DNA of 63,859 nucleotides, filler included, from Chrysochromulina tobinii (Eukaryota): NCBI GenBank assembly GCA_001275005.1. It is 9 parts of 9 records of this genome, joined end to end, with 100 filler letters (N's around TTAATTAATTAA, not from the genome) between each part and the next. Parts side by side here need not be neighbours in the genome. Positions count along the whole stretch, not along the records: positions 48,313 to 57,043 come from JWZX01000007.1; 8 more parts are not named here. One strand, written 5' to 3'. A program made the position numbers and the translations under genes. Position 1 is the stretch's first letter, and each line of letters opens with the position of its first letter. Of the stretch, positions 13,301-63,701 are shown in pieces. Below the pieces are notes generated by a model, which made no database searches, had not been told where the DNA came from, and saw nothing but the letters and a program-made list of their open reading frames with translations.

Positions 13301-15403
13301 CGCCCTCGCCGCCGCCGCCCTGCGCGCGCGTTACGCAAATATCCGCTCGTTCTGGTGGTTGTGTGGACTACCTCAGACTGGACTTCGACGATGGTTCATT
13401 CACTGCTTACGGGTCCCAAGGAAATCCAACGACCACATTCAATTTGCTGGCGGGTGAACATCTCGATTCTGTGTCCTGGACTCGATTCCAAGGTGGAGCA
13501 TATTGTCTTCCTGGCTGTGCGGTGACCTTCATTACTTCCTACGGACGCAGTGCCGGCATCAGCGGGTCATGGGGTCCTGCGAACGGCTGTCCTGCGCAAG
13601 CAGTTCAGTTTCCCAGTAACCAACGGCCGATTGTAGGGCTCAACTATTCAGCACCTGATGGGACCTCCATGTCCCAAGTTCTTATCGGTCCAATCACCAC
13701 GGTCTCTGCTTGCGCGGCGTCGCTTCCGCCCTCGCCGCCGCCGCCTTCGCCCTCGCCGCCGCCGCCCTCGCCGTCAGCACCACCGCCCCCGCTCGTGTGC
13801 AACTTCGTCGCGGGCGATGGCTTCGGCGGCGGTGCCGCATCGGAGTTGAACACCGGGTCTTCTTATGGCTCTGGGCTCGAATGCGCCGAAGCGGTCCGCA
13901 CCAGGTACCCTCTCGCCAACGGCGTCACCTACGGCCCCGGGGGCGTGTGCTGGGCCGAGTTTGGCATGCATAGCAGCAACCCTGCCTGGATTAATTGGAG
14001 CACGTGCCTCTTCGGCGGCTGGCCGTCACCCCCACCTTCGCCACCGCCGCCTTCGCCTTCGCCGCCGCCGCCCTCGCCGTCAGCACCACCGCCCCCGCTC
14101 GTGTGCAACTACGTCATGGGCTGGGTCGCCGTCTTTTCGGGGCTTGAGTACCTCGGGGCCCCCTTTGACTCTGGGCTCGACTGCGCCGTAGCAGTCCGCA
14201 CCAGGTACCCTCTCGCCAACGGCGCCGCCAGCCATGGGGGCAACGGCGCCTGCTATGCAGTATCTGGCTTGGTTAGTCTCGACACTAACACAGTTTGGCG
14301 CACGTGCCTCTTCGGCGGCTGGCCGTCACCCCCGCCATCGCTGCCGCCACCGTCGCCCTCGCCGCCGCCCCCGTCCTCGCCGCCTCCGCCATCGCCACCA
14401 CCGTCGCCACCACCACCCTCACCTCCGCCATCACCGCCGCCTCCGTCCCCACCACCATCGCCACCCCCGCCGAGCCCACCACCATCGCCGCCTCCTCCCA
14501 GTCCGCCTCCGTCGCCACCACCTCCCTCACCTCCGCCGTCACCGCCGCCACCCTCGCCGCCACCGTCTCCTCCCCCACCAAGTCCTCCGCCTTCACCGCC
14601 ACCCCCTTCACCACCACCGTCTCCACCACCACCATCGCCACCACCTTCGCCGCCACCTCCGTCCCCTCCGCCTTCGCCTCCACCGCCATCACCGCCGCCC
14701 TCGCCACCTCCTCCAAGCCCACCACCTTCTCCACCACCGCCCAGTCCACCGCCATCGCCTCCTCCTCCTTCGCCACCGCCGTCGCCCCCGCCCCATCACC
14801 GCCGCCTCCTTCGCCACCACCCGACGCCACCACCTTCGCCCCCGCCACCTTCCCCCCCTCCTCCTTCGCCTCCTCCTCCCTCGCCGCCTCCACCTTCTCC
14901 TCCACCGTCTCCTCCACCTCCCATGTGGTGTGACAACGCCTGCGTAGCCACCTTTGGGCGAACCGTGGTCGACGTGAGCTCCGATGGTACTTGCGATGAC
15001 GGAGGTCCGGGGAGTGAGTATCCGTACTGCAAAGTCGGCCACGATTGCGACGACTGTGGCCAGCGTTTCAAGTACCCGCCTTCACCGCCGCCGCCGTCGC
15101 CGCCGCCTCCTTCCCCGCCTCCACCATCGCCCCCACCTCCCTCTCCACCTCCTAGGCCTCCACCGCCTTCACCACCGCCGGAGCCTCCGCCATCGCCTCC
15201 ACCCCCGTCACCCCCACCGATGCCACCTCCTCCATCGCCGCCACCCCCGTTGCCACCTGCACCAGACGGCGGGTACAGCCCGCCTCCGCCCTCGCCGCCG
15301 CCTCCATCGCCACCTCCACCTTCCCCACCCCTCCCCTTCCGCCTCCTCCTTCGCCACCAAGCCCAACGCCACCTCCATCACCGCCGCCGCCTTCGCCTCC
15401 ACC
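10321..15403 (+). CDS. Mosaic SPPP (extensin-like) ORF: Cys-rich modules, EF-hand-like insert, ShK-like and jacalin-like domains; 3' truncated. A real gene may start at ATG 12787
   Basis: Four LVCN...CLFGGWP modules, CPVACGTC motif, jacalin-like RVTQISARSG..VDYLRL segment, long SPPP tracts, signal-peptide-like FALALLVLCAPQVSA after Met 12787. Confidence 0.55.
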
Positions 15404-15503
15404 NNNNNNNNNNNNNNNNNNNNNNNNNNNNNNNNNNNNNNNNNNNNTTAATTAATTAANNNNNNNNNNNNNNNNNNNNNNNNNNNNNNNNNNNNNNNNN
15501 NNN
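15404..15503. other. Artificial contig linker
   Basis: N44-TTAATTAATTAA-N44. Identical linkers at 25622-25721, 28222-28321, 31371-31470, 33497-33596, 48213-48312, 57044-57143 and 60319-60418. Confidence 0.97.
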
Positions 15504-15885
15504 GATGCGCAGCGCCCGCTGCACGTCGCCGAGGGTGTCCGTCCTCTTCTTTGGGCGGTGCCCGGGGGGCTCGTGCTCGGGGGCCTCGTGCGCGGGGGCC
15601 ACGTGCCCGGGCTCCTCGCCGGAGCCGTCCCCGTCCTCGCTCCCCGTGCCGGCTTCGGGCTCCATCGCGGGGCCTTAGCTGCGGCGGCGCAGGTGAATGG
15701 GACGGGAGGACGGCGCAGCGTCCACTGCCGACGGCCGCGCCCGCCCGCCACCGGCAGCTCGCGTCGAGCGACGGCGATGCGTCGCACTGACGCACATCGC
15801 ACTGCGCACCGACGCACAACGCATTGCGCTCTGACGCAAAGCGCGCGCGCTCTGCGCTTCCGACGCAAATCGCACGCGGCTCCGA

Positions 15886-16025
15886 CGCAATTGCGGCAGG
15901 AGAACCGCGCAATTGCGGCTGTTTTTCACGCAATTGCGGCTGATTTTCACGCAATTGCGTCGGAATTCGGACGCAATTGCGTCGGATCTCGGGCGCAATT
16001 GCGTCGGGTTTTGGGCGCAATTGCG
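15886..16025. repeat. Seven phased copies of the palindrome CGCAATTGCG
   Basis: Copies start at 15886, 15908, 15929, 15950, 15972, 15994 and 16016, with variable 11-12 nt spacers. Confidence 0.9.
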
Positions 16026-16089
16026 GCACGATTTGCGTGTGAGTCTTCTCTGACCCCAAAGTCTTCTCTGACCGACCCTTCCTACATCG

Positions 16090-18463
16090 ATGGCGGCCTA
16101 GCGCGTGACCGGGACAAAGAAAGGCGGTTTGCCAGTTGAGGTGCAGAGGCGCAAGCATAACAAGACGGTGACGCTCCTGTCGCTCGCAAACGTGCGCGGT
16201 GACCACCAGCTGCTGCTCAGCCATCTGAAGACGGCCTTGGGCACCGGTGGTGCCATCGTGGACGGCGCCATCGAGCTTCAAGGTGAGCGTGCCGAAGCAC
16301 TGGAGACGTGGCTGATCGCGCACGACGCCATCGAGGGAATGGCCAAGCCCAAGGCGCCAAAAGCGGCCGCATCACCGCCACCGCCACCACCGTCGCAGCC
16401 GACTGGTGCGCACCAGCCAGCCAAGACACGTCCACCCGATCGGGCTTCCCGCCCGGCTTCGACGGCCTACGGCAGATTTGTTGCCCTCTGGAAGTCGTGG
16501 CCCTATTGGGACCATGACTGGTCGCAGCTGCCGCATCGTTGGGAGGCGGCTCAGGCGGCTCCGGCGGCCGGGAACGAAAGCGACCTCGAGGGCGGCAGTG
16601 TCGAAGGCCTCGCCGCAGCGACGGCCGCAGTGCGCGCTTCGGGTGGCTCGGCTCATGAGATGATGGAGGCGGGGCTCCGTGCGCTCGGCATGCTCGCCGA
16701 GCCGAGCTCCTTTCGCCAGAGCCGTGCCGAGCGGGCGCAGCTCCATAAGGCAAACGCCCAGCCGCCCGCGCGGACCTCAGCAGCGATGCACCGACCGGCG
16801 GCGGCGGCGGCCGCAGCCCCCCCCGGGCTTGGATACCCCCCGCAGTGGAGCGCCGTCGCCAGCAGCGCCGCCCACGGATGGCAGAGCCATGGCGGCGGCG
16901 GCGGCGGCCGTGGCGGCGGCGGCCGTGGCGGAGGCCGGGGACACGAAAGCGAGAGCAGCGGCAGCCGTGGGTGCGGTGGCCGAGGGCGCGTTGTGGGCGT
17001 GCGAGCTGGCAGCCACATGCGGCGCGCTCTCAGCCACGGCGCCGTCCCGAGCGTTTCCGGCAAGGGATCGGGCAGCGGCCGGCGGGGCGCTCGGTACGGC
17101 GCTCGGGACGGCGCTCGGGACGGCGCTCGAGGCTTGACGAGCGACGATGAGTGGAGCGACGAGGACGAGGACGAGGACGATGACGATGCGGAATCGTGCC
17201 TGGGTGCGACGCAGTGGCGCCTCAGTGACCACTTACCAGCCGGACCCGGTGCTTCCTCTGTCGCATGGCCGCACCGCGCGGCGCCGTCGTGGGCGGGTCG
17301 TGCCCACGACGGCGCCAATGGTCGTGCCCACGACGGCGCCAACGGCCGGGCCCACGCGGACGAGGAGGACGAGGCACTGCAGCTCGCGCTGGCGCTCTCC
17401 CTCTCCGAAGGCCCCCCCGCCCAAGGCAGGCCGCCCCCGCCCGCGCCGCCGCTCCCACAGCAGCGCCCGCCACAGCGCCCACCAGCACCGTTATTGTCGC
17501 CTGTGCTTGCCGCGATCGAGGTGCGCCTTGAGCAGCAGCGGCGCGCGTACGAGCAGCAGCAGCAGCAGCAGCAGCTCGGGTGTGGCGCTGTGGCGAGCGG
17601 GGTCAGAGGGGCAGCCTCGTCGGCGCCGTCGTGGGCGCCTCCGGAGCGGCGGCCGTTGGTGACGTGCGAGGAGCTGTGGGGAGATCTCGATGAGGAGGAG
17701 GCGCTTGCTTTGGCCATCCGGTTGAGTGTGGAGGCGGAGGCGCGCCGTGACGAGCGTGCCCGGGCAAGGCAGCACGCTACTGCTCATCACGGCGCTACGA
17801 CTCGAGATGCTACAGCTCATGAGGTAGTGGCGGCGGCGGCGGCGGAGGAGGAGGAGAAGGGCGAGGAGGCCCTGGAACGACGAGTGGGACGGAGAGGAGG
17901 AGTGGGAGGAGGAGTGGCAGGAGGAGTGGGAGGACGAAGCGGCGTGGGATGAGGGCGAGGCGTCGTGGGCCGAGGGGGCCAGGGAGGTGGCCTCCATGGC
18001 CGCCCCGAGTCCAACCCTTCCGCCAGGGCTGGCCAGCACGCACACGGCCAATAACAACGGCTTGAGTGATGCGGAGGCGCTCGACACGGCGCTTAATAAC
18101 GGCTTGAGTGATGCGGAGGCGCTCGAGACGGCGCTGTGCTTGTCGAGAGAGGCGGCTGCTCGAGCGTCCCTACCACCTCCGCGCAGCCGGTCGACGCAGG
18201 CCCGGGCAGCAGCCGCCGCAGCCGCAGCCGCGCCGACTTTAACGGCTTGGGCGCTCTCGAGGCTCAAGCAGCTCTCCATGGATGAGCTCGTGGACGCTGA
18301 TGTGTTGATACAGTACGTGCTGGCCATCGAGGACGATGCCGAGGTGACGGAGTTCGTGACGCAATTCTTGGGGGAGCGCGATGAGAGCTTCGCGTTTGCC
18401 CTCGAGCTGTGCGAGCGGCGACGTCAGGAGCAGACAACGGTTGACAATTACACCAAGGTATAG
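16090..18463 (+). pseudogene. SUI1/eIF1-domain + UIM repeats + C-terminal PWI-like domain gene with two apparent lesions (or assembly errors)
   Basis: RRKHNKTVTLL...LKTALGTGG...IELQG (SUI1); EEDEALQLALALSLSE-type UIMs; in-frame TAG at codon 4 after ATG 16090; +1 frameshift near 17871 linking to ORF 17987-18463. Confidence 0.6.
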
Positions 18464-18690
18464 CTACTGAGATCTGAGTATTGTGTACGAACCGTACTAA
18501 CGTGACAGGAGCGACTACAGACACGTGACAGGAGCGACTACAGACTACAGACGGTGCGGCTTTCGACGCGACACTCTGCATAGATGTTTCGCTCGTCTCT
18601 CCCTCTAAGCGTCAGGGAGCGGCCACGCATGCCGGGCCACGACGTCCAACACCGCCACAGTAAAAAACGAAAACCTCCCAAGCCACCCCC

Positions 18691-19500
18691 GTAAGTAAGT
18701 AAGTAAGTAAACGCATGCCTACAGGCAGCGCACATGTGGCGAGGGGGGCACCCCCAGGCATACAAAGCGTGTACGGTGTTCAGCAAACCGAGTGCAGAGG
18801 CTGATGAAAGCCATCAGTCAACACCCGTTTGCGGCTCAAGAGCTGCGGGGTTAGTCACGATCGTGCACTCTCCCTCTCGCCCGATCTCGTAGCCGTGCCC
18901 TCCATTGTTGCAAGTCCCTTTCTCTCTCCTGTCTCTGCCTAATGGCCTCCCGTCGTGCAGCGCGCCTACTCGGCGCTGGCGCTGCTGCCGCGGACCCCGA
19001 ACCAAACAGCTCCGCTTCGAGCCTCCTCGCCTCTTGACGCAGATCCTTCGAGAGGAATGTAACGCTGACCCAGGATTCCTCCCAGAGGTCCCCATCAGAG
19101 TCTTCACCCTCCCATTCCACGAGTACGTCCAGAGGGCGGCCTCGCCGTCCCTCGTGCCGTCGCACCGCCATGATGCGACGCACCGCCCATCGTCCTCCGT
19201 CGTCTGCCTCCTTCATCAGAGGCATTGTACGTTGCGCTTTTTTTGGTCCATGTACTACGTTGTGATCTCCCCATCCGCTGCAGCATCCCCCCCGTAACGG
19301 CTGTAGCCAGCCTGCATCCTGCAGGGCCATAATAACTGTTTCGTTCCCGACCAGTAGATCCGCCAAAGCGCCTGACTCCTTGTGAATCGTCCGCGCGCTT
19401 GCACTGCTCGACCCCACATTCAAAGCACCATCCATCGAACTTGCCCCTACCGTCACACATCGTCCTCGTAGCAGTCGTTCCGTTGCGCGAATGAGGGCCT
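18691..19500 (-). mobile_element. Probable 5'-truncated retrotransposon fragment: chromodomain-like ORF end plus (TTAC)5 tail
   Basis: WAVRRIMAVR...VLVEWEG...WEESWV in ORF 18851-19456, an upstream CFECG motif in another frame, and (GTAA)5 at 18691-18710 on the + strand. Confidence 0.45.
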
Positions 19501-19510
19501 CGCACAGCCT

Positions 19511-22500
19511 TCAAGTTGAAAACTCGCGAATCTCGCCACTGGATAGCCGCAGCCACAGCTCGCGACGCTCGCTTTCGGATAGCCGCGGCCGCAGCTCGCG
19601 AATCTCGCCACTGCTCTCACTGGGAAGAGGCGGTTTCGTGGCGACCACCTTTCCAAAAGTGGAGGAGCTCGATGAGCACATAGGAAGAAGGCACTGGGTG
19701 GCTGGAGCCTGTGGGGTCGTCTTCTTTACCGGGGCCGAAGGCTCGAAGCTGGTAGATTTGCTCGAAGAGCTGAGGCCAATCTTATGAGGCGTCTCCTGGC
19801 CGTTCTGCCTGTTATTCGAGAGGTTCCCGGTGTTGGGGACCTTGTTCAGCATGGATTTGAGCATCCGGTTGCGCATAGCGTGTTTGTACAGGTTCGTCCG
19901 GATACGCTGGCTCGCCCAGGCGTGCGTCTCCAGTTGTTCGAGCGCGAGGATCTGCTCGCGCACGTCGCTTCCGGAGACGGGCGAGGCAGTCGTGGCCACG
20001 CGCAGCATGGACTGCGAGCGGCTCATGTCGTAGCTGAGCAAGCCAAAGGAGACGAAGCTCCAAAAGTCCTGCACCTTCTTGGCCATGGTGTGGAAGAGCA
20101 CGAGAAAGCCCACAAAGCGCTGCAGCGAGGCGAGGCGCGTCTCGTAGAGCACCTGCACATTGCGCTGGCGATCCATCATGTCACCCACACTCGGGTATTC
20201 CGCACGCCGGTGGGGCTTGCGCATCCACGCGCCCACATAAGGCTGCTCGATGGCATGGATGGACATCAGAGCACGCACGGCTGGCGCGGAGTAGTCCAAA
20301 GTGTCCGAGTCGGCGATGTCGTCGAGCATTTGCCTTGTCGAAGCATGCGACTTTGTTTGCAGCTGCGACATCTTGCCCATTAGTGCGGTTGAGCCCCCCA
20401 CCTGCTCGCCTACAGTGTCCAACGTGTCCAAGGGTTGGGCTCGCATCGGTTGCTTGGCGGCAGAAACTACAGCCTTGAGGAGCGCGGCTCTGCGCTGCTT
20501 GAACGATTTGCTTCCGCCGCTTGGCCCGTTTCTGTAGCTCGCCTCGTCGCTATCGTCGGTAACCGTCGAAGGACCGCGCATTCCCGAAGGAGATGTCGAC
20601 GGACCGCGCATTCCCGAAGGAGATGTCGAAGGACCGCGCAATCCCGAAGGAGATGCTGAGGGAGACTCTGAGGTAGAAGCTGGAGAACACGTCGAGCACG
20701 TCCATGGGGCTCCCTGCGAGCGTTGCGTAGATCCCGCGGATGCGGATCCCTGCGAGCGTTGCGTGTCCTCAGGTGTTTGACTCGTACCGTCGCTCGGTGA
20801 AATCGTCCCCATTAGGATCGACAACCCCTTTCCGGTCCGCCGTGCGATCATGGAGCGGATCGAGACGGGCTCCGCGAGATAGTTTGGATTCAGGTTCTGC
20901 TTGACGAAGGACTCGGCGCTGTCGATGGGCTTGTCCCACGCAGCCTCGAGAGCTGCTGTCTTATGGATGCTCGGCAGGTTCAGCTTGCCTTTGGAGCGAG
21001 CTGCCTGGGGCGACTTGGAGTGGATAGCACCGCCGAAGTTTCCATGACGCCGCTGATTCGCAACATCCTCCCCAGGCCAGGCACCCCTCCTGACCCCATT
21101 CGGGGAGACGCCGTTGGAGCCACCGTGGGCGCTCCTATCCTTCGAGGCGGCATCGAGGAGGAGCTCGCACAGAAACTTGGGCCGCACCGTGGGCAGCACG
21201 AGGCACGCGTTGGTGAGATCGATCTTATGCGCGTGATGGCCGAGCGTGAAGCACTCGCAGTTGGCACCCAAGTTCTCGATGGCACACGCCTGGTTGATCG
21301 CGAGATGAATCATCGAATCAGCCGAAGTGAGTCCGTTGAGTCGCGCGTCGGGGCGGCCGATGGCAAGGAGCGAGCCGCGCCGGACGCGATGCGTGAACCT
21401 GTGCACCAGGTGGTCCTGTGGATTCGCCGACCAGACCTGCAGGTCGGCGATCGAGTACGAGAGCGCGAAGAGCTTTGAGAGGAAGGCCTCGGTGCATTGC
21501 GCGACCCACGGGACGTCGCCGATGAGCAGTGTGCGCCCGGCGACCCGATGCATGAGTGGTCTGCCCTGGATCAGCCGCAGACACCACGCCGTCCAAATCG
21601 GGAGGAAGATGTAGATGATCGAATCGAGTACGCCGATTATGTACTGCCACTGCATACGCCCGATCTGGTCGGCGTGCATGGCGCTTGGTATGTTCGCGAG
21701 GCCGTAGGCGAAGGCAGCGGAGAGGGGTGTGGCGCCAATGATGACCGTGGCCGCGATGTAGATGGCGGAGAAGATCCAGCAAGACGCGCTCTCCAGAATG
21801 TGCTGTGCCCAGCGCAGGCCCTGCGCACGCAGCATCTGGTTCGCATCCGTGACGACCGCCTCCACCTCGTTTCCCACCTTGATCATGCGAGCGGTGCGCC
21901 GCTTTTCGAGCCTGGCAAAGAGCTTGAGCGAGAACTCGATGTAGCCCAACTCGAGCAGCACGCCGGCGATGAGCTGGATGAGGCTGTCTATCCACTCGCT
22001 CAGCTGCTTGCCCGTTGGGAAGCAGCAGCACGCCCAGCGCCGGAGGCAACTGCCGCTGCTGGCCGCCGACTCGTCGGACCGGTCGAGACGGTCGATCGGG
22101 TTTCCGTATGTATCGACGTCGTATGCCTTGACGCCGACGATGAGCTCAATGGCGCGCAGGTGGTCGGGAAGGAAGCCGTGGAGCTCTTGCACCTCCTCGC
22201 GCACATGGCTCGCGTGCGTCGTGTCGACGAGGTAGTTCATTGTGAAGAGGAGCACGTGTGAGAGGAGCGAATGCATCGCCACCACCGAAATAGAACACGC
22301 CTCGCTCGTGCGCACGCCCGCAAACGTCGAGAATGTATATGAGGAGAAGCCGGCCTTCCCTCCCCCGCCCACGGGGTTCTTGCGCGCGTTCGCTTCGCGC
22401 ACGGCGCGCCCGATCTGCGTGTCCCACTCCGAGCCCACGATGAACATTTCAGTGGTGACATTCTTGAGGAGGTGGCACACGGAGAGGACTGGGAAGGTGC

Positions 22501-25721: not shown

Positions 25722-27731
25722 GGCGCGGCGTTTGGCGACGCGTTCGTCAAGGCGGCGCAGCTGCCGGTAGCCGAGGGGGCGGCCGTGCCAGACAAGGAGG
25801 CGTGGCGGCTGCGCGTGCTCGCCACGCTCGTGCGCAAGGGGCTGCCTGCCGCGTGGCTGCCCACGGCGCTCGAGGCGGCCAAGGGCGTGGCGCGCGAGGC
25901 GGCGCACGAGGCGGGGAAGCTGGCTGCTGCCGACGCGCTCGTCGTGGGCAAGCGCGTGCTCGCCCTCGACGTGATCTGGAAGCAGGCCGTGGTCGCACGC
26001 GTGGAGGGCGACGCGGTGGACGTCAAGGTCCAGGGGTGGGACGAGAAGAAGGGCCTGCCGCGCACCAAGGCGCTCGTCGTCGCCTCCGACGGCGCGGGCG
26101 CGCTCCTCCGTCTCGCCGCAGGGGCGGGCGACGCGGCGCTCGTCGAGGCGCTGCTCGACGCGGGCGTCAACCCGCTCGTCGCCGACGAGCGCGCCAACAC
26201 GCCGCTGCACCGCGCCGCCGCCAGCGGGCACGTGGCCATCTGCCGTGCGCTCGTCGCGAAGGGCGCCGACAAGGAGGAGGAAAACACGCAGAACCAGTCC
26301 GTAGCCGGCGCAGCACAGAACGCCAAGCAGCACGCCGTCGTTCGCCTCTTTGAGCCGACGCTCTCGGACCGCGAGTTCACCGACGAGGCGTGCACGTGCA
26401 CGGAGCGGCTGCGCGCCGCCGCGACGGGGGACCTAGCGACCCTCGCACGCACGCAGGACGCGGGGAGGATCACGGCGCTCATGGTCGCGTCCCGCCGCAA
26501 GCAACTCGCGGCCGTCGTCAAGCTGCTGGCATCCTCAAACGCCTCCACGCTCAATGCGCAGAGCGCCGAGGGCTGCACCGCGCTCTACCTCGCCGCGGAG
26601 GAGGGCGCCGAGCCGATCGTGCAGCAGCTCCTCACTCAAGGGGCGGATGCGGCGCTCGCCGCTTCCGACGGTGGCACTCCACTCATGCGGGCGAGCCATT
26701 TTGGACACCAGCGCTGCCTTCACGTCCTGCTCGAGGCAAAGGCCGACCCAAATATGGCAACGCCCGACGGCGTGACCGCCTTGATGTGCGCTGCCCAAAC
26801 TGGCCACGAGCAGGTCGCTCTCGTCCTGCTCGAGGCGAAGGCGGACCCAAATAAGGCAACGCCCGACGGCGTGACCGCCTTGATCCTCGCTGCCCAAACT
26901 GGCCACGAGCAGGTTGCTCTCGTCCTGCTCGAGGCGAAGGCAGACCCAAATAAGGCAATGTCCGACGGCGTGACCGCCTTGATGTGGGCTGCCCAAAATG
27001 GCCACGAGCAGGTTGCTCTCGTCCTGCTCGAGGCGAAGGCGGACCCAAATAAGGCAACGCCCGACGGCGTGACCGCCTTGATATGGGCTGCCCAAAATGG
27101 CCACGACCATGTTGCTTTCGTCCTGCTCGAGGCGAAGGCGGACCCAAATAAGGCAACGCCCGACGGCGTGACCGCCTTGATCCTCGCTGCCCAAACTGGC
27201 CACGAGCAGGTCGCTCTCGTCCTGCTCGAGGCGAAGGCGGACCCAAATAAGACAATGTCCGACGGCGTGACCGCCTTGATGTGGGCTGCCCAAAATGGCC
27301 ACGACCATGTTGCTTTCGTCCTGCTCGAGGCGAAGGCGGACCCAAATAAGGCAATGTCCGACGGCGTGACCGCCTTGATATGGGCTGCCCAAAATGGCCA
27401 CGAGCAGGTTGCTCTTGTCCTGCTCGAGGCGAAGGCGGACCCAAACAAGGCAACGCCCGACGGCGTGACCGCCTTGATATGGGCTGCCCAAACTGGCCAC
27501 GAGCAGGTCGCTCTCGTCCTGCTCGAGGCGAAGGCGGACCCAAATAAGGCAATGTCCGACGGCGAGACCGCCTTGATGAAGGCTGCCCAAACTGGCCACG
27601 AGCAGGTCGCTCTCGTCCTGCTCGAGGCAGGAGCTGACCGGAACAAGGAGCTTTCTGGTCACAGCGGCTGGAATGCTCTGAAACTTGCGGAGATGGGTGG
27701 ACATTCTGCTGTCTGTGATTTACTGAGGTAA
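25722..27731 (+). CDS. Ankyrin-repeat protein, 5' truncated by contig edge
   Basis: TPLHRAA, TALYLAA, and nine near-identical 99-nt ankyrin units at 26733-27623. Confidence 0.9.
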   Translation, partial: GAAFGDAFVKAAQLPVAEGAAVPDKEAWRLRVLATLVRKGLPAAWLPTALEAAKGVAREAAHEAGKLAAADALVVGKRVLALDVIWKQAVVARVEGDAVDVKVQGWDEKKGLPRTKALVVASDGAGALLRLAAGAGDAALVEALLDAGVNPLVADERANTPLHRAAASGHVAICRALVAKGADKEEENTQNQSVAGAAQNAKQHAVVRLFEPTLSDREFTDEACTCTERLRAAATGDLATLARTQDAGRITALMVASRRKQLAAVVKLLASSNASTLNAQSAEGCTALYLAAEEGAEPIVQQLLTQGADAALAASDGGTPLMRASHFGHQRCLHVLLEAKADPNMATPDGVTALMCAAQTGHEQVALVLLEAKADPNKATPDGVTALILAAQTGHEQVALVLLEAKADPNKAMSDGVTALMWAAQNGHEQVALVLLEAKADPNKATPDGVTALIWAAQNGHDHVAFVLLEAKADPNKATPDGVTALILAAQTGHEQVALVLLEAKADPNKTMSDGVTALMWAAQNGHDHVAFVLLEAKADPNKAMSDGVTALIWAAQNGHEQVALVLLEAKADPNKATPDGVTALIWAAQTGHEQVALVLLEAKADPNKAMSDGETALMKAAQTGHEQVALVLLEAGADRNKELSGHSGWNALKLAEMGGHSAVCDLLR

Positions 27732-28499: not shown

Positions 28500-29298
28500 A
28501 CGCATGCAGCATGCTGCTCACGCATGCTGCTCACCCATGCTCTCTCTCTCGCGCGCGCGCCGCGCGCCGTCCTCGTGCGCGAGAGAGCATGGCGGCACAC
28601 GAGGAACCGTTCCGTTCGACCTCAGCGGGACAGCGGGAAACCACGGTTCCGATCTCTCTAGTGAGATATCGAAGCGTGGCTCTCTCGTTTTCTCTGAGGC
28701 CTTGGGCTCTCGATCGCCAGCTTTTCACGACACTACCCTGACAGGTCCATGTGGCCAAAATGTGTGTACTTCGTGGCCAAAATGTGTGTACTTCGTCAAG
28801 TATCGCCAAGGTGAGGGTCAGGAGAGTCTAGATTAGGGTTTTCTATATATGGTTCTCTAGATTAGGTGGGCAAGACTCACGAGCGGAGAGTGAGAGACGA
28901 GAGAGTCCACTCAGCACTCTCCACACAGTAGCCCATGGCTCTGCGGGGTATGATATTGTCGATTTTCGTGTCCAAGGGTGACCCGTGCCTACGTCGACAA
29001 CCGTACCGTACTGTGTCGTGTCGAGTCTGTGAGCTGCGCTGTGACCTGATGCTCGGCTGAGAGCCATTGCTGTGAGCTGTGAGCTATCCGACGATTCATC
29101 CTGTATCCTAAAAAACACGCCGTGTGCGTGCGTCTCTTTGCGAGGTAAAATGTTTGTATGTTATAACGCGGGGGGACCGCGACGAAACTGACTGACGGAC
29201 TGATGTTTGTATGTATGACGAAACCAACCGCTCCGCGTCGGCTCTGAAATCGACTGACCTTTTCGTTGTTTCGGAGAGCCTTTTGTTAATTTTTGGCC

Positions 29299-31370
29299 AT
29301 GGGCTGTGCCCCCACCAAGCAGCAGCCTGAGTCGCCGGATCCGTACGCCGAGCCGGATGCCGAGCCGGATGCCAAGCCGTCTGCAGACGATGCCCTCGAG
29401 ACACAATTGATGGGGAGCGTCGGCTCTGGCAAGGAAGACACCTTGATGGACAAGCAGACTTTCAATGACGTGGTCGTCGAGCTTGGGCTTCAAGGAATTG
29501 CGGCGGACATGAGTGAGGACGATCACAAAGAGCTCGAAGATTACATCAAGAGCCTAAAGGAACGCCAGACCTCGGTGACAGGCTTCAACCTTTGTCCGCA
29601 CCACGATGAAATTTTGCGAGGCCAGCCACGACCTGAGGAGAAGCCCGCCAAAGCAGCGAGCCGATCCCATATGCATCGCGAGCTGCTGCGCAAGCCGTCA
29701 ATAAAGCAGTCGGTTTTGGATGAGATGGACAACGCGACGGCGCGGATGCAGCCGAGCGCCCGCGAGACCAAGGACATGCTCTTCGCGCTTCACGCCTACA
29801 CGCGGGACGAGATCTACCGCGAGTTCAACCGCGACCACCGCGAGCTTCGGCCTGAGCCTTGGGCTGCTGTCTCGAACACGATGCGCTGCGCCGTGGAAAA
29901 TGCACGCTCGCCAGATGCCGGCGCGACTCTCTACCGCGGCGACACTCGCAACTTGTACACCCTCCGGAAGGGTCAGCTGGACTGCTTTTCTCAGTACACG
30001 AGCGCGAGCCTCAATCGAAGAGTCGCGAAAAGCTTCTCGGGGGACAAGTGGATCTTTGAGATCACGGGTGTCCCGCATACCCACTGCGCAATCATCAAGC
30101 ACGCGTCCAAATACCCGAATGAGGACGAGGTTCTAATTGCGCCCGGGTCCACCTTTTGCGTGGAGAGTGTCGACGAGTCAACCACTCCGAAGGTCGTGCG
30201 TTTGCGCTTTGGCGAGGATGGCAAGCAGGCCGACTGCGAGTGGTGCCTACTGGAGCGCGAATTCAGCACCTCGCGCCTGGTCACTGGTTCGTCAACGATC
30301 ACCGCGTTTGGTGTCGCGCTTGCTGGGAGGGCTCCAGGCAGGCCCCGCGCCGACGGCGACAGGCCCTTAATCGATGGACCATGTTTCAAATGCTTCGATA
30401 AGAACAGCCAGCTGGTCGATGGTACGGGAATGAAGCGACCACTCCTGGTTTCGGCTGCGGGTCGTGGCGCGGCAGGGGTAGCCATGGTAGACTTGCTGCT
30501 CGATCGGTTCGGGCTGGACGTAGATGTGGAGCGGCGCTTCACAGCATCCGACCACGCGGCACAGGCCCTGGAAGCTGCTCTGCGCTCCCCAAGCGGGACT
30601 CCGGGCCGTGCCGACTGCGTCGCCGCGATCATCGGCAACTGCGTACTGCGTCGACCTTCGCCATCCTCAACCTTCGAAGCCATCGTGTCACCGCTGCAGC
30701 TCGGCACCTTGCTGCGAGAGCCAGAACTCGAACGCATCGCTGAGCTAGGACAGAACTACCTCAGCCTTCCCTTGAGCAAGCCACGCGTGGTGTCCCTGTC
30801 AGCGGAGCAGCTCGTGCTCGCCATCCCATGGGCTGATGCAAAGGGCGAGACGCACGAGGCTGTGCCGTCGTGGCTGAAGGACGGGGCGTTGTGGTCAGAC
30901 GCAATTCGTTTTGAAGTCGACGCGTTCTCTGTGGAGTCCGGCGCGCCAGAAGTGGCCGGAAGCCAGGAGATCGATGCCCCATACCACTCGTGGCCCGGGG
31001 GCGCTTATGACATCAGCACAGAGCCATTGCCAGCAGGAGGAGTCCTGCTCAAGATGCCCAACAATCTGGCGCCGCTTGCGTCGAAGCTCTGCGTTGTGCG
31101 CGTTCGTATTGCCGAGGGTCAGTTCATCGCCGGTTCGGCGGCAAAGAGCTACTCGTGCAATCGGCAGTCACTGTGGTCGCTGCGCAGCAATGCGACCGAC
31201 TGGGAGGCTGCAGAGGCGGCTCGAAAGGAGGCAGAGGCCGCCGAGGTCGCAGCCAATGCGGCCAAGGCGGATGCGGACGCAAAGGCGGCAGAAGCGACTC
31301 TGTGGTTTCTGCGCAGCCATGCTAACGCAAAGGCGGCAGCGGAGGCGAAGGCGGCGGCTGAAGGGAAGGC
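29299..31370 (+). CDS. N-myristoylated R-S-E type (ARTC-like) ADP-ribosyltransferase domain protein; 3' truncated
   Basis: MGCAP N-terminus; ALHAYT...LYRG...YTSAS...SKYPNEDEVL motifs. Confidence 0.8.
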
Positions 31371-48314: not shown

Positions 48315-50000
48315 GGCCACCTCGCCGGCAAGAGTGGCCCGGAGCTCGGGCGGCTGCTGGGTGTCGTGAGCGACTTCCCCACCGAGGCGGAGCGGCAGGC
48401 AGCGACGGAGGAGCCCCTCTACACGCAAGACGCTCAGCACGACGCCACCGCACCGCGAGCGGCCGACGCACCCACACCGCCAGCGCCCGTGTGCTGGCTC
48501 TCGACACAGCTCGTCAACGAGGACGTCCTCGAGGACGCCCTCGCGGACGCCGACGTGCCGACGCTGCGCGCGCTCAAGGGCGTGAGCCTCGCGTGGCGCG
48601 CGCGGGCGCGGCGCGTCCTGTGCGCGCGGCTGTGCGCACGCGTCGGCCTGCCCCTCACGAGCAACCTCGTCGAGGTGACCGAGCTCAACCTCTCGGACAG
48701 CCGCACCGCCGGTCGCCTCTTCGCCGACGCGGTCGACGCGTCGCGCTGGCTGCCCAACCTGGCAAAGGTGACGGGGCTGGGCGGCTTCGAGGTGGACGTG
48801 GCCGCGCTGAGGAGTGTGGCGTCTTCGGATGGATCAGAAGAAGATGAAGATGGTCCGCAACCGTATCCGATGGCAGGGGTGCGCGCATGCATCCGCGGCG
48901 AGGGCGAGGCGCCGATGGAGGTGCTGCTTGCCGCGTGCGTGCTGCGCCGTGGCGAGGCGCGCGTGCCGCCAAGCGCGTTCTTCGAGGACAGGTCGATTAC
49001 GTCGATCGCGCTGCCCGCCGGCCTCACGAGCGTCGGTGAGTTCGCCTTCTGGGGCTGCTCCTCGTTGACGTCGATCGAGCTGCCCGCGGGCCTCACAAGC
49101 CTCGGTGAGGACGCCTTCTCTGGCTGCTCCTCGATGACGTCGATCGAGCTGCCCGCCGGCCTCACGAGCCTCGCTGAGCGCGCCTTCTATGGCTGCTCCT
49201 CGTTGACGTCGATCGAGCTGCCCGCCGGCCTCACGATCCTCGGTCGTGGCGCCTTCGTCGACTGCTCCTCGTTGACGTCGATCGAGCTGCCCGCCGGCCT
49301 CTCGAGCCTCGGTGAGTGCGCCTTCGCTGGCTGCTCCTCGTTGACGTCGATCAAGCTGCCCGCCGGCCTCACGAGCCTCGGTGAGGTCGCCTTCTGTGGC
49401 TGTTCCTCAATGACGTCAATCGCGCTGCCCACCGGCCTCACGAGCATCGATGAGGACGCCTTCTATTACTGCTCCTCGTTGACGTCAATCGAGCTGCCCG
49501 CCGGCCTCACAAGCATCGGTCATGGCGCCTTCCGTGACTGCTCCTCGTTGACGTCGATCAAGCTGCCCGCCGGCCTCACGAGCCTCGGTAAGGAGGCCTT
49601 CACTGGCTGCTCCTCGATAACGTCGATCGCGCTGCCCGCCGGCCTCACGAGCATTGGTGAGGGCGCCTTCAAGGACTGCTCCTCGTTGACGTCGATCGAG
49701 CTGCCCACCGGCCTCACGAGCCTCGGTAAGGAGGCCTTCTATGGCTGCTCCTCGATGTCGTCGATTGAGCTGCCCGCTGGCCTCACGAGCCTCGGTAGGT
49801 ACGCCTTCTATCGCTGCTCCTCGATGACGTCGATCGAGCTGCCCGCTGGCCTCACGAGCCTCGGTGAGGGCGCCTTCTCTGGCTGCTCCTCGTTGACGTC
49901 GATCGCGCTGCCCGACGGCTTCGATGAAAGCATTCTCAGGTTCGCCCAAGTGCCACCCAGCGCCATCCTTCGCTTTGGACCGGCAGTTGACGTCGATTGA
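48315..50000 (+). CDS. Skp1-F-box-BspA-type LRR protein, copy A (5' truncated, 13 LRRs)
   Basis: GKSGPELGRLLGVVSDF (Skp1 tail), EDVLEDAL...LKGVSLAWR (F-box-like), 69-nt repeats at 48993-49889. Confidence 0.85.
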   Translation, partial: GHLAGKSGPELGRLLGVVSDFPTEAERQAATEEPLYTQDAQHDATAPRAADAPTPPAPVCWLSTQLVNEDVLEDALADADVPTLRALKGVSLAWRARARRVLCARLCARVGLPLTSNLVEVTELNLSDSRTAGRLFADAVDASRWLPNLAKVTGLGGFEVDVAALRSVASSDGSEEDEDGPQPYPMAGVRACIRGEGEAPMEVLLAACVLRRGEARVPPSAFFEDRSITSIALPAGLTSVGEFAFWGCSSLTSIELPAGLTSLGEDAFSGCSSMTSIELPAGLTSLAERAFYGCSSLTSIELPAGLTILGRGAFVDCSSLTSIELPAGLSSLGECAFAGCSSLTSIKLPAGLTSLGEVAFCGCSSMTSIALPTGLTSIDEDAFYYCSSLTSIELPAGLTSIGHGAFRDCSSLTSIKLPAGLTSLGKEAFTGCSSITSIALPAGLTSIGEGAFKDCSSLTSIELPTGLTSLGKEAFYGCSSMSSIELPAGLTSLGRYAFYRCSSMTSIELPAGLTSLGEGAFSGCSSLTSIALPDGFDESILRFAQVPPSAILRFGPAVDVD

Positions 50001-53444: not shown

Positions 53445-54049
53445 CGGCTGGCTAACGGCCGGCGGCTCGCATCTAACGGCTGGCTAACGGCCGGCGGCTC
53501 GTGCCAGGTCCTCACGGCCGGCGGCTCGTGCCAGGTCCTCACGGCCGGCGGCTCCGTCGGACCGACTGCCAGCAGCTCCGTCTGAGCGTGGCGCCCGCCA
53601 TGGCGCCCGCCGCTGGAGGGGGAGCACGCGTCGCCTCTCGCGAGGCCACATCATCGGCCTAAGCGTCGAATGTAGGGCGCACGTGTGTCCACAGCAGACA
53701 GGAACAAGTTGAATATTCAATCATACGAAGAAAGTGTCTCTGTAGTCTGTTCAACACGAGTACACGACCCGACTAAGACCCGACCGGTCACCGGACGACT
53801 CGTGACTCACGTGACACGTCACACGAGACACGTGTTACCGATACCGTTCGTGAGTTCGCGCGTATCGTATTCGCATTTTAACTTAGTACTTACGTATTTG
53901 CCGAGTCGCCGTACGTATACGCCAAAACTCTCCAGTACACGCGGGTAGCCACGGAGTTATTCAATGTTGCCCGTGCAGCAATCGAAGGTCGGGCAGCAGC
54001 TGTCGAAGCTCCGTCCAGGTTGCCAGGAGAGCCTAGGTGAGAGGGCCGC

Positions 54050-56672
54050 TCAGCTTAGGTCGTACGGGTTGGTGTGGCTGCTGCCGGCAGCGGCCGGAGC
54101 CGGCGGCTTGCTACGCCGCACACGCTCGGCGGCGAGCTTTCCTTGGCAATTCGCTCCGTAGTAGCCTCCACCGCTTTGGCCGGGCACTCTCCCATGCCGG
54201 TCTGGCCGCGCGTTCGCTTGCGTTCGGGGCAGATGGCCAGCGTCGTTGGTGGACCACGGGACGTCGTTGGGCGCGTAGGGCTTCGGCGGGAGCGAGTAGG
54301 GCACTGGTACCACGAGCGCGCCGGCGAGCTGTGAATGGGCCAGCTGTGAATGGTCCAGCTGTGAATGGGTCGCTGCACTGGTAAAGCCGGCCGCGCCGCC
54401 CAGCACGACGCCCGCGTGGGCCTCGGTGCGAGTGCTGCCGCTCGTGCTGCCGCTCGTGCTGCCGCTCACGCCGTGCAGGTCGGGTGCGCAGAGCGGCACT
54501 TGCGGCGTGGCCATGAGGAGCACACCTGTGGGGAAGGGCGAGACGCCGTGGTGAGCACTTGCATGCTGGAGCTCGTGCGGCGTGGCCAGGAGCACACCGA
54601 GCTCGTAGCTCATCAGCGGGTCATTAAGGGGTCATTAAGGGGTCATTAAGGGGTCATTAAGGGGTCATCAGGTGATTCGTGGCTCACCGAGCTCGTAGCT
54701 CTTGATGTAGAGTTGGGTCTCTTTCTTCTCAAGCTTGCCCCAAGCCGCCTGCGACAAGTTGTGCGAGGCGAGGATGGCCCAAGGCAGGGTGCGATCGGCG
54801 GCGTAGCGGCAGTAGGTCTTGATGTGAGGCACCGCGAGGGCGCGCCCGCTCGCGCCGCCATACGCGCCATCGCCGCCATCCCAGGTGCATAAGCGGCCAC
54901 GTGGCAAACCCATCTTAGGCAACTCGGCGAATCTTGCCTAAAATGGGGAGAGAGAAGGCGCCGTGGTGAGCACGTGCATGCAAGGGCAGGTCATCAGATG
55001 CAATCGGCAACTCGGCGAATCTTGCCTGCAGCCGCTCGACATTCTGTACCTCACACGGGATGCTGTTGCCCGCGTACCAGCCTTCCAGACTCTCGCCCAC
55101 CTGCGCCTGCGTCGGGAAGACGACCTCGATCGCAGACGGCGTTGGGCGCGTACCTGTGGGGAGAGGAGGGCGCCGTGGTGATCACTTGCATGCACCTCGA
55201 TCGCAGACGGCGTTGGGCGCGTACCACAAAAGGAGCGCACGAGCTCAACGAGCCATTCTGGTTTGGTGCCGGGCGACGAGAGCGATGAGAACTGCAGCAC
55301 GAGCGGCGCGCTGTGGAACTTGGCCTCGGACGGCGCCGCGTCTAGGATGGTCCGTACCTGCGTTGGACGGGCGAGTGGGGCGCATGCGATGAGAGAGGTC
55401 ATCAGTGGTCATCAGCGGTCATCAGGATGGTCCGTCCCTGCGTGAGGTCCCAGCGGCAGCATGCAATCAGCATGCACTTAGCACGCCCTCAGCATGCAAT
55501 CAGCATGCCCTCAGCACGCAATCACCGTACCTGCATGTGGCCCCAACGGCCGAGCTTCTCGCCCGTGTGCCGCCCAGGCACCGCGCCGAGGAGCCGTGCG
55601 CGGCATGCAGTGTAGTCGTAGCATCGAATCCATCTCAGATCGAGCGCCGCCCATCGAGCTTGCTCAGCCGCACTCTGCGGCTGCCACTGCGGGGGGGGAT
55701 GCATGCCGAGCTCTCGCACCTGCGGGGGAGGATGCATGCATGCATCAGGAGGATGCATGCCAAGCTCACGTGCACGCATGCATCTACCGTGAGGTGCATG
55801 CATGCATCAGGATGCCGAGCTCACGCACCTCCCGGTAGTACCCGTCGAGGTCTTCCCCAAAGGCGCCGATCGGAGCGGCCGCACTGCCCGCCGTGGCCGG
55901 CGCACGCGCCGCGCGCGGGAAGCTCTCCGTCCAAATCCCATTCGTCTTGTTCCACACGTCAGCAAAGATGAAGTTACCCGAGAGCACGGCCACTGTGAGC
56001 TCGGCTGGGCGTACGATGAATAGGGCCTTGGAGTGATGCGTGCCGAAGCGCTCGCACGGTGGCTGCAGGAACACGAATCGGCCCGGCTCGGCGGCAGCGC
56101 ACTGTGACTGCGGCGGCATGCCATCACCATGCACTACGACCACACGCGGCACGGTGCGCACCGCGGGGCACTCATGCACGACAAAGTCGAGCTGCGGGCG
56201 CAGGTGTCGATCCACAGACCGATGGTCAGCAGCAGATGAGCAGAGGAGCCAGAGGGCTGGTGATCGGGAGCCAGCGACGCACGTCGATCATGAAGTTGAC
56301 GATGTGGAGCTCCGAACATCCACACAGTGAGTCGGCCGACAGCAGGTCAGTGATCGACAGCGTCCCTTCGTTGCACCGGCGAGCGACCAATCCAGCCTCG
56401 ATCCATGCCCGGTGCAGCGTGCTGAGATGAAAGCCGAGCTTCGGGCCAGGGAGGGCAGTGCTCCCAGACATGCCGGCTGCGTCATGCATCTTGGAGCGCT
56501 TAGCTGGCGGCTCAGAAGCGGGCTGCGCATCTTCGTCAGTGGAGCCGTCGAGAGTGTCTGCGAGCCACGCCGCGCAGGCAACAAGGTCGGCGCCGTGCGT
56601 CGCCATGGCTGAGCGCACGCGTTCGGCCGGGAAGCCCATCGCAAGCAAGGACGCCTCAGTCTCTGCTTCCAT
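54050..56672 (-). CDS. TDP1: UBA + tyrosyl-DNA phosphodiesterase 1; exons 56672-56283, 56191-55829, 55719-55531, 55357-55225, 55153-55026, 54937-54688, 54525-54050
   Basis: The spliced product reads in frame with [46 protein letters not shown] and PVPY.LPP.PY. N-terminal LLAMGF...AAWL is UBA-like. Confidence 0.92.
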
Positions 56673-61811: not shown

Positions 61812-63701
61812 TTGAAGCGACGTCGGGTCGGCGGCGGCGGAGACAGCGGCGACGGCGACGTCAACGGCGGCGACGGCGACGACGGCGTTGTGAGGGCGCG
61901 AAGCGCCGAGGGCGAGGAGGTTGTGTGGTCCCGTTCGGCCGCGGCGCGATCGGCGGCGCTCGCCAACTGGGTGAGCGACACGGGCGGCGCCGAGGGGGCG
62001 TTCGCCACTCTGGTGCCTGCGGCTGCGCTCCGCACGCTCTCGCGCGTCGCCGAGGGCGGTGCGGAGGATGGCGGGGCGCTAGAAGGGTGCTCGCTCGCGC
62101 AGCTCGCGCAGCTTTTGCATGGCGCGCACTTTCTCGACGTGGACGTCGAGCTTCTCCGCCTCCTCTCGCGTTCCCTGTGCACCGGCCACCTCGCCGGCAA
62201 GAGTGGCCCGGAGCTCGGGCGGCTGCTGGGTGTCGTGAGCGACTTCCCCACAGAGGCGGAGCGGCAGGCGGCGGCGGAGGAGCCGATTTACACGCAAGAC
62301 GCTCAGCACGACGCCACTGCACCGCGAGCGGCCAACGCACCCACACCGCCAGCCACCGTGTGCTGGTTCTCGGCGCAGCTCGTCAACGAGGACGCCCTCG
62401 AGGACGCCCTCGCGGACGCCGATGTGCCGACGCTGTGCGCGCTCAAGGGCGTGAGCCTCGCGTGGCGCGCGCGGGCGCGGCGCGTCCTGTGCGCGCGGCT
62501 GTGCGCACGCGTCGGCCTGCCGCTCACGAGCAACCTCGTCGAGGTGACCGAGCTCGACCTCTCGGGCAGCCGCGCCGCCGGTCGTCTCATCGCCGACGCG
62601 GCCGACGCATCGCGCGGGCTGCCCAGCCTGGCAAAGGTGACGGGGTTGGGCGGCTTCGAGGTGGACGTGGCCGCGTTGAGGATTGTGGCGTCTTCGGGTG
62701 ACTACTCGTACCCGATGGCGGGAGTGCGCGCGTGCATCCGCGGCGAGGGCGAGGCGCCGATGGAGGTGCTGCTCGCCGCATGCGCGCTGCGCCACGGCGA
62801 GGCGCGCGTGCCGGCGCACGCGTTCCGCGGGGACACGTCGATGACATCGATCGCGCTGCCCGCCGGCCTCACGAGCATCGGTGAGGGCGCCTTCTATGGC
62901 TGCTCCTCAATGACGTCGATCGCGCTGCCCGCCGGCCTCATGAGCATCGCTGAGTTCGCCTTCTCTGGCTGCTCCTCGTTGACATCGATCGAGCTGTCCG
63001 CTGGCCTCACGAGCATCGGTGATAATGCCTTCGATGGCTGCTCCTCGTTGACATCGATCGAGCTGCCCGCCGGCCTCACGAGCATCGGTAGGAGCACCTT
63101 TTACAACTGCTCCTCGATGACGTCGATTGCGCTGCCCGCCGGCCTCACGAGCTTAGGTGAGGCGGCCTTCTGGGGCTGCTCCTTGATGACGTCGATCGAG
63201 CTGCCTGCAGGCCTAACGAGCCTCGGTGGGTACGCCTTCTATGGCTGCTCCGCGATGACGTCGATCGAGCTGCCTGCAGGCCTCACGAGCATCGGTGGGT
63301 GCGCCTTCTGGGGCTGCTCCTGGATGACGTCGATCGCGCTGCCCGCCGGCCTCACAAGCATCGGTTGGAAGGCCTTCTCAGGCTGCTCCTCGATGACGTC
63401 GATCGCGCTGCCCGCCAGCCTCACGAGCATTGGTGGCGCTGCCTTCAATGGCTGCTCCTCGTTGACGTCGATCGCGCTGCCCGCCGGCCTCACGAGCATC
63501 GGTGGGTGCGCCTTTTACAACTGCTCCTCATTGGCGTCGATCAAGCTGCCCGCCGGCCTCACGAGCCTCGGTGATGACGCCTTCAAGGGCTGCTCCTCGT
63601 TGACGTCGATCGAGCTGCCTGCGAGCTTCGATGACAGCACTCTGAGGTCCGCCGGAGTGCCTCCCAGCGCCATCCTTCGCTTTGACTTCGCTTTGCACTG
63701 A
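61812..63701 (+). CDS. Skp1-F-box-BspA-type LRR protein, copy B (11 LRRs; start codon unclear)
   Basis: LAQLLHGAHFLDV..LL...AGKSGPELGRLLGVVSDFPTEAE (Skp1), F-box-like segment, 69-nt repeats at 62838-63596. Confidence 0.85.
   Translation: MKRRRVGGGGDSGDGDVNGGDGDDGVVRARSAEGEEVVWSRSAAARSAALANWVSDTGGAEGAFATLVPAAALRTLSRVAEGGAEDGGALEGCSLAQLAQLLHGAHFLDVDVELLRLLSRSLCTGHLAGKSGPELGRLLGVVSDFPTEAERQAAAEEPIYTQDAQHDATAPRAANAPTPPATVCWFSAQLVNEDALEDALADADVPTLCALKGVSLAWRARARRVLCARLCARVGLPLTSNLVEVTELDLSGSRAAGRLIADAADASRGLPSLAKVTGLGGFEVDVAALRIVASSGDYSYPMAGVRACIRGEGEAPMEVLLAACALRHGEARVPAHAFRGDTSMTSIALPAGLTSIGEGAFYGCSSMTSIALPAGLMSIAEFAFSGCSSLTSIELSAGLTSIGDNAFDGCSSLTSIELPAGLTSIGRSTFYNCSSMTSIALPAGLTSLGEAAFWGCSLMTSIELPAGLTSLGGYAFYGCSAMTSIELPAGLTSIGGCAFWGCSWMTSIALPAGLTSIGWKAFSGCSSMTSIALPASLTSIGGAAFNGCSSLTSIALPAGLTSIGGCAFYNCSSLASIKLPAGLTSLGDDAFKGCSSLTSIELPASFDDSTLRSAGVPPSAILRFDFALH

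Follow-up and report, generated by a model that had tools for sequence, protein, structure and literature searches.

The window analysed here, a 63,859-nucleotide stretch of Chrysochromulina tobinii DNA, consists of nine contigs joined by spacers, and two genes on separate contigs within it carry introns built in part from copies of their own exons. One encodes a UBA and tyrosyl-DNA phosphodiesterase 1 (TDP1) protein and the other a flavin amine oxidase (Table 1). Removal of six introns (91, 109, 173, 71, 88 and 162 nt) from the TDP1 gene leaves a single intact frame, in keeping with the claim of an initial annotation that insertion does not alter the protein, and the spliced product is collinear with a homologue (P0002) across all six junctions. 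For one protein of the window, the closest matches in named organisms are all haptophyte, from Prymnesium parvum (65%), Diacronema lutheri (50%) and Pavlovales sp. (49%). Elsewhere in the window, positions 29290-31368 (plus strand) hold an open reading frame (ORF) that encodes an NAD:arginine ADP-ribosyltransferase domain (PF01129, E = 1.5e-14) on a contig of lower GC content. Regular coding tandem repeats of 99 and 69 nt lie at about 26800-27620, 49000-49720 and 62860-63560, with periods that we take to be ankyrin-like and leucine-rich-like.

Table 1 Genes, introns and intron components in the window (all on the minus strand)
Feature	Coordinates	Strand	Composition or evidence
Flavin amine oxidase gene	1786-3348	-	Pfam PF01593; 465 aa with two introns removed
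Class A intron, 78 nt	1970-2047	-	21-26-nt exon copy, filler, core (2009-1987), tail
Mirror (class B) intron, 87 nt	2188-2274	-	GT, 10-mer repeat module, 36-nt copy of upstream exon end
TDP1 gene (UBA + tyrosyl-DNA phosphodiesterase 1)	54049-56672	-	Pfam PF06087 on exons; 7 exons, 642 aa
First TDP1 intron, 91 nt	56192-56282	-	No core; exon copy of at most 7 nt
Cassette-less intron, 109 nt	55720-55828	-	Both ends copy the next 33 exon bases; removal needed for frame
Compound intron without core, 173 nt	55358-55530	-	5' repeat module, junction copy, 3' repeats
Class A intron, 71 nt	55154-55224	-	31-nt exon copy, core, pyrimidine tail, AG
Left copy of 31-nt duplication (71-nt intron)	55194-55224	-	Source of GT donor; 31/31 against 55153-55123
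Shared core, 23 nt (71-nt intron)	55171-55193	-
Class A intron, 88 nt	54938-55025	-	20-nt exon copy, 24-nt filler, core, tail
Shared core, 23 nt (88-nt intron)	54959-54981	-
Compound intron, 162 nt	54526-54687	-	GT, 10-mer repeats, internal junction copy, core, tail
Core of 162-nt compound intron	54544-54566	-

Flanking-exon copies lie inside five of the six TDP1 introns, in several architectures. The simplest, class A, is exemplified by the 71-nt intron, where the annotated copy of the next exon holds at all 31 positions and is followed by the core, and by the 88-nt intron, whose first 20 nt, as had also been described, repeat the start of the following exon exactly and give a GC donor; the 24-nt filler of the latter resembles the 5' module of longer, parent-like units described below. 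The 162- and 173-nt introns are compound, and each contains a contiguous copy of the exon-exon junction, comprising 14 nt of upstream and 25 nt of downstream exon with a 3-nt deletion in the former (about 54611-54576) and 20 + 14 nt in the latter (about 55457-55424). The 109-nt intron begins with a copy of the next exon, 17 nt with one mismatch (16/17) as annotated, and its last 20 nt copy exon bases 13-33 at 19 of 20 positions; judging by these matches it is an intron of the tandem-duplication type, and its earlier grouping with the cassette introns is not sustained, as no cassette lies within it. The 3' cassette of about 40 nt that the introns were said to share reduces to a core of 23-24 nt, beyond which the four tails in the window differ, and the 162-nt intron, reported to end in that cassette, does contain the core, within a compound structure and without the shared 40 nt. 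The 173-nt TDP1 intron and the mirror intron of the amine oxidase gene had been overlooked.

Four occurrences of the 23-nt core were counted in the window, all on the minus strand (54544, 54959, 55171 and 1987), against none in 100 shuffles. The occurrence at 1987 lies in the amine oxidase gene, which agrees with the report of a cassette in an unrelated gene on another contig. Within the core, about 25-30 nt from the AG, is a CTCAC that fits the yUnAy branch-point consensus, a putative branch point. In the amine oxidase gene, the exon copy of the 78-nt intron is exact over 21 nt and matches at 25 of 26 positions over a longer stretch, and the intron corresponds to a 26-residue gap in four related proteins (P0006, P0007, P0008 and P0011). 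The mirror intron reverses this arrangement: its copy of the upstream exon end (35/36 matching) provides a CAG acceptor. One near-identical protein (P0005, 411/412 residues) is without the mirror intron but continues into the sequence of the other one, and two more (P0134 and P0136, 455 and 446 of 463 identical) lack both; the source contigs of these three proteins, at 3.7-5 kb, suggest DNA and could be RNA.

Splicing was assessed by comparing contigs from four RNA runs (X11, X13, X14 and X15) with the TDP1 contig, and such contigs show the presence of a joint, not the efficiency of splicing. All three cassette introns are skipped, as a check of their junctions in RNA required: the 71-nt intron in X11, X14 and X15, the 88-nt intron in X11 and X13, and the 162-nt intron in X15. 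The 173-nt intron is skipped in X13, X14 and X15, and the first intron in X11. Runs X17-X20 contained almost none of the sequence words sought and count neither way. Direct repeats at the ends of these skips measure 32 nt for the 71-nt intron, 22 nt for the 88-nt, 4 nt for the 162-nt and 10 nt for the 173-nt. In one X14 contig, a GT further upstream, at 55077, is spliced to the 54938 acceptor, a frameshifting skip of 140 nt; from this single joint we conclude that the acceptor is functional and that splicing sometimes bypasses the copied GC donor. The cassette-less 109-nt intron is retained in two of the four runs (X11 and X14), in one case on a contig spliced at two other introns, and no spliced joint for it was found among the RNA contig pieces listed. 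That the core-bearing TDP1 introns are skipped and the core-less 109-nt one retained hints that the core aids splicing.

The exact core pattern is present at no fewer than 135 metagenome loci, and removal of 14 allelic or overlapping loci left 250 non-redundant copies, so that the cassette is abundant outside the window, as the initial annotation had anticipated. Of these copies, 176 were usable, 59 having no acceptor call and 15 lying at edges. Next-exon copies were found at the intron start in 115 of the 176 against 4 of 594 controls in an acceptor-anchored test, and flanking repeats in 167 of 231 copies against 29 of 984 swapped controls in an unanchored one. Among the 115 left copies, 93 start with GT and 8 with GC, 41 are perfect and 90 are preceded by G; left copies conform to the donor consensus, 66 of 89 having a G at +5. 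The proposed origin of the donor in a long duplication of variable length is thus borne out (101/115), as is an acceptor that arrives with the insert. Repeat length is continuous between 13 and 49 nt with a median of 31 nt (gaps allowed, n = 86; median about 26-31 nt across measures), although repeats below about 11 nt are under the detection threshold and short ones may also exist. Young introns span 65-95 nt, and the inverse relation of repeat to filler length (rho = -0.34, P = 0.02, n = 45) suggests a floor on intron length. Repeat lengths showed no periodicity of 10 or 10.5 nt (n = 45); in the 45 young class A copies they were spaced by about 5 nt (R = 0.33, P = 0.0055, uncorrected over five periods), which may be chance.

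Among copies, only a sharply bounded stretch of 23-24 nt is conserved, and 33 of 86 have a 5' filler of at most 3 nt. Tails are nearly all distinct (158 of 165), mostly ending in CCCCACAG (107/176) and variable before that. Tails within two edits of each other were more frequent in same-locus pairs (14/124) than between loci (268/13353; Fisher P = 3e-7; label permutation 2/500), in a test confounded by strain and later gene conversion and made on non-independent pairs; most same-locus pairs are unlike in tail, and the three TDP1 tails differ. Between loci, the association of tail likeness with shared upstream filler was weak (Fisher P = 0.07), and foreign filler of up to 21 nt has been carried from one locus to another. 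An origin of the tails in the upstream exon was rejected (score 7.66 versus 7.70, P = 0.66, n = 89). Core variants were common within loci (0.24 versus 0.03), a result set aside because exact-match seeds and the cluster at locus L038 bias the measure. Pairs of copies lie on the same strand in 279 cases and on opposite strands in 12. Microhomology at repeat ends is weak, with a match to the upstream bases of other copies of 4.7 nt against 3.5 nt at shifted positions (n = 10, P = 0.006), and an acceptor-like sequence precedes 6 of 89 left copies.

ORFs near the loci show that the host genes of core copies are diverse. Summed contig depth is 8,400-21,500 for cores against 42-53 for unique pieces, which fits many copies and gives no copy number. 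The core pattern had no match in prokaryote genomes and one in viral contigs (L001); the parent 5' module had none in viral contigs. At L001 (1420-1560), a cassette copy with a flanking repeat lies in a viral-collection contig that is probably host DNA and has two ORFs without a Pfam match.

Filled and empty alleles of the same site exist, as a presence/absence check was expected to reveal. Loci L012 and L079 are 98% identical (29 mismatches over 1474 nt), and L079 alone carries an 81-nt insert comprising a 33-nt repeat and 48 nt of 6-nt filler, core and tail. Over its last 50 nt the insert matches the neighbouring intron of L012 perfectly, and that of L079 itself, 524 nt downstream, with one mismatch; the tail was absent from every other non-redundant locus. 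Microhomology is present at both joints (GC and G|GTG), and the insert, which preserves the reading frame, is a putative intron. Gain rather than loss is the presumed direction, as read from the two alleles by themselves, and direct repeats would permit exact deletion. A second pair, L104 and L048, differs by a 42-nt insert made solely of a repeat and a 10-nt acceptor piece. Presence and absence between close alleles is thus seen in L012/L079 and between the window and P0005, P0134 and P0136, proteins that may derive from RNA; these sequence comparisons suggest that new introns are still being made in this haptophyte.

The same footprint is left by sequences other than the core. In a search that did not demand the core, 25 of 112 repeat-plus-acceptor cases had none, and 12 of these 25 end in a second 3' module (...TCATCAG; scored by eye, some in tandem). 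About 18 of 43 matches, scored by eye and without a shuffle control, form a mirror class, in which a repeat module starting with GT precedes a copy, 14-39 nt long, of the end of the upstream exon, the source of the AG. Bare cores with 0-2 nt of filler and no tail lie between repeats of 20-43 nt; an excess of in-frame lengths among bare inserts was not significant (3/6, P = 0.32; post hoc 6/10, P = 0.08). An antisense core lies in an intron of a DnaJ gene (L077), and solitary copies without an acceptor, by a crude signature that looked spurious at L027, were in the same orientation in five cases, opposite in five and undetermined in seven, counts that we do not use as evidence. Full-length parent-like units of 5' module, core and tail also occur (for example, L009 and L010). 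The parent 5' module lies directly upstream of the core in 21 of 250 copies, and a 12-nt palindrome overlaps the 5' edge of the core in the parent form, its first 11 nt being present in 38 of 250. The single intron-generating element of the initial annotation does not account for a second cassette, a mirror class and bare cores with one footprint. Together with the varied tails and the cassette-less intron, these forms point to a general duplicate-and-patch process rather than a single element.

Several loci show further rearrangement. Repeat-plus-cassette units are re-duplicated head to tail in 2-5 copies at L013 (1366-1445), L023 (1201-1295), L038 (1798-2091), L053, L066, L070 and L136, and L023 and L052 differ by one 94-nt unit. 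At L118, L021, L026, L074 and L038, new repeat-plus-cassette units sit exactly at an older acceptor and create AG|GT sites that, from their sequence, could serve recursive splicing. At L027, L029, L043, L072, L078 and L109, apparent coding sequence contains a 12-16-nt motif like the 3' half of the core, in tandem as well as on both strands, in these six loci far above shuffles, and the core may have been built from such satellite units.

The observations establish that the duplication is long and variable, that the patches come from several different intron-end sequences, that the repeat can supply the splice site on either side, that one donor lies in a neighbouring intron and that microhomology is weak. 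For these spliceosomal introns, which start with 15-50 bases copied from the following exon and end in a piece that other introns of the genome share, we favour, at somewhat better than an even chance, a process in which staggered breaks are repaired on templates and intron ends are copied, with the products filtered by selection. Two nicks about 30 nt apart would be filled in to give the direct repeat; a free end would anneal to a donor intron, often nearby, through microhomology of 2-6 nt, prime there, copy it and rejoin, the template being DNA or nascent RNA, which the data do not distinguish. Selection would then retain spliceable or in-frame products, of which three forms would survive: class A, with a 3' piece and a donor from the repeat; class B, with a 5' piece and an acceptor from the repeat; and a core within a repeat that spans AG|GT. 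By analogy with other organisms, the enzyme might be a polymerase theta-like or NHEJ fill-in activity. Each class A intron restores a CAG|GT junction that resembles a cryptic donor in an exon, and would thereby offer the next insertion a template. A more tentative extension, which we consider less likely than not, is a transposase-free, self-feeding proliferation in which ordinary intron ends serve as templates, CAG|GT guides copies to cryptic donors by microhomology, and each insertion seeds its own gene and others genome-wide, still segregating in the wild. Against the break-repair reading stand the sharp core ends and short 5' filler, which random template switching does not predict and a defined element or a reverse transcriptase stop does, although in part they reflect ascertainment, as copies were found through the core. 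The one-way orientation fits RNA as well as selection.

The principal alternative is target-primed reverse transcription, in which a non-LTR reverse transcriptase nicks the target and copies intron RNA, from pre-mRNA or excised, from its 3' end and stops early; an offset second nick would give the variable duplication, and partial reverse splicing of an intron 3' end into DNA is a variant. Non-LTR retrotransposition is characterized by variable duplications, a precise 3' end and 5' truncation, and the variable repeat lengths, precise 3' AG, decaying 5' filler lengths, strong sense bias, downstream position of the neighbour donor in the same gene and donor consensus of the left copies all speak for it. 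Poly-A and a single master tail are absent, however, and extra steps are needed for the mirror class (fixed 5' GT, open 3' end), for bare cores cut at both ends and for antisense copies. Among 148 ORFs (L001-L081, two per locus), no reverse transcriptase or transposase family was found, and this limited search yielded no autonomous, longer element ending in the cassette, such as the initial annotation had proposed to look for. Rfam searches of five loci gave only two chance-level matches and no head derived from tRNA, 7SL or 5S RNA. On balance we regard this explanation as unlikely, while granting it a substantial share of what templated repair leaves over. It seems improbable to us that these are conventional introners with a long target-site duplication (TSD), in which a dedicated enzyme making unusually long staggered cuts mobilizes a small DNA element that is not autonomous (either the 24-nt core or a parent intron of about 70 nt). 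Such an element would explain the discrete, sharp-ended core, the bare-core inserts with 0-2 nt of filler and the palindrome at the core edge of the parent form, and introners are reported from Chrysochromulina metagenome-assembled genomes (MAGs) in PMC9860276. The duplications here are not of fixed length, unrelated modules leave the same footprint, foreign filler moves between loci and published introner TSDs measure 3-9 nt. Terminal inverted repeats (TIRs) were not visible among the 255 copies listed, a hairpin was rejected with no terminal pairing or fold beyond shuffles in five sequences (z = 0.37-1.13), and the metagenome loci shared no long flank apart from alleles and satellites. The earlier view that a TIR transposon fits less well agrees with these results, nothing having pointed to one.

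Two further explanations fit the data poorly. Abortive intron loss, in which old introns were partly overwritten by spliced cDNA, an exon piece replaced one end and empty alleles are completed losses, draws on the two TDP1 introns with contiguous exon-exon junction copies, on the existence of full-length parent-like introns and on the acceptor-like sequence before a few left copies (6/89). It leaves unexplained the bare and antisense cores between repeats and the 50-nt identity with a neighbouring intron, and relatives 65-75% identical (predictions from DNA or RNA) are collinear without these segments; we consider it quite improbable. An assembly artefact is the least credible reading and would be very surprising. 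The 31-32-nt repeat approaches the k-mer size of the contigs, and the 71-nt skip taken alone could be graph collapse. DNA contigs (X1) nevertheless agree fully with the window across the cores, in pieces that leave 55179-55395 uncovered, identical inserts recur in independent assemblies, and the skips of 88, 162 and 173 nt carry repeats of 22, 4 and 10 nt.

Where new spliceosomal introns come from has long been asked, and the bursts that have been explained mostly trace to transposon-derived introners whose duplications are short and fixed. The footprint described here is long enough for each event to be read, with its target, its duplication and sometimes its donor intron. Close alleles differ in such events, and mixed cultures of the host that contain RNA exist, so break-repair and RNA-template models are directly testable. 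If intron ends are indeed mobile templates, intron-rich genomes could generate introns without a dedicated element. For annotators this is a warning, as introns of this kind look like duplicated exon sequence and employ GC donors.

Several known systems resemble these introns in part, and the comparisons that follow rest on the accessible parts of the cited sources. Introners recruit splice sites from TSDs of 3-9 nt and are reported in Chrysochromulina MAGs, where the 5' site is carried and the 3' site co-opted (PMC9860276); the 11-mer of the core was not found among the supplement rows listed of that paper. Polarella introner classes have TSDs of 3-8 nt (bioRxiv 10.1101/2020.10.14.339549), and PMC12130899 lists transposable element orders, together with some unknown mechanisms, for introners. 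Like introners in Symbiodinium, Polarella glacialis, Aureococcus and Chrysochromulina sp., the introns here are similar in unrelated genes, carry one splice site and take the other from a duplicated target, and leave mRNA length unchanged. Within an introner family the TSD has one length, TIRs are often present and copies resemble each other over their full extent, whereas the duplications here vary from 13 to 49 nt, the intron is only partly shared, tails are nearly all distinct, either end may be carried and one donor is a neighbouring intron. A variable-length TSD and 5' truncation are shared with SINEs and other non-LTR retroposons, whereas a single master with a fixed poly-A or simple-repeat 3' end is not seen, and in the mirror class the 3' end is open.

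Fillers of new introns in Daphnia pulex are reportedly mostly unique. These introns arise from repair of staggered double-strand breaks and share repeats of 4-12 bp with the exon (PMC4202315). An exon-shared repeat is likewise found here (115/176 versus 4/594 in controls), about three times longer and with a filler that is a repeated family of intron ends; repeats of 4-30 bp near splice sites are described in general (PMC11782384). In the tandem genomic duplication model, a duplicated exon segment gives the splice sites (PMC3443670), which fits the 109-nt TDP1 intron and repeats spanning AG|GT; that model has no foreign insert, whereas most cases here add a core and a new acceptor or donor. 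Sister introns and (stw)introns of Hypoxylaceae are proposed to spread via intron RNA at DNA breaks without a transposase (PMC8469720); unlike those here, they are whole introns with 45-55-nt TIRs, inserted seamlessly without flanking duplication. Fill-in at staggered breaks yields small tandem duplications in mammalian cells (PMC8355091), a route to short direct duplications at overhang breaks that does not concern intron creation and would apply to a haptophyte by analogy. This combination of features was not found in the literature seen, and subscription journals and supplements may hold it. Although they depart from introners in lacking a fixed short TSD, TIRs and end-to-end similarity, the introns of this haptophyte behave like introners and like break-repair intron gain.
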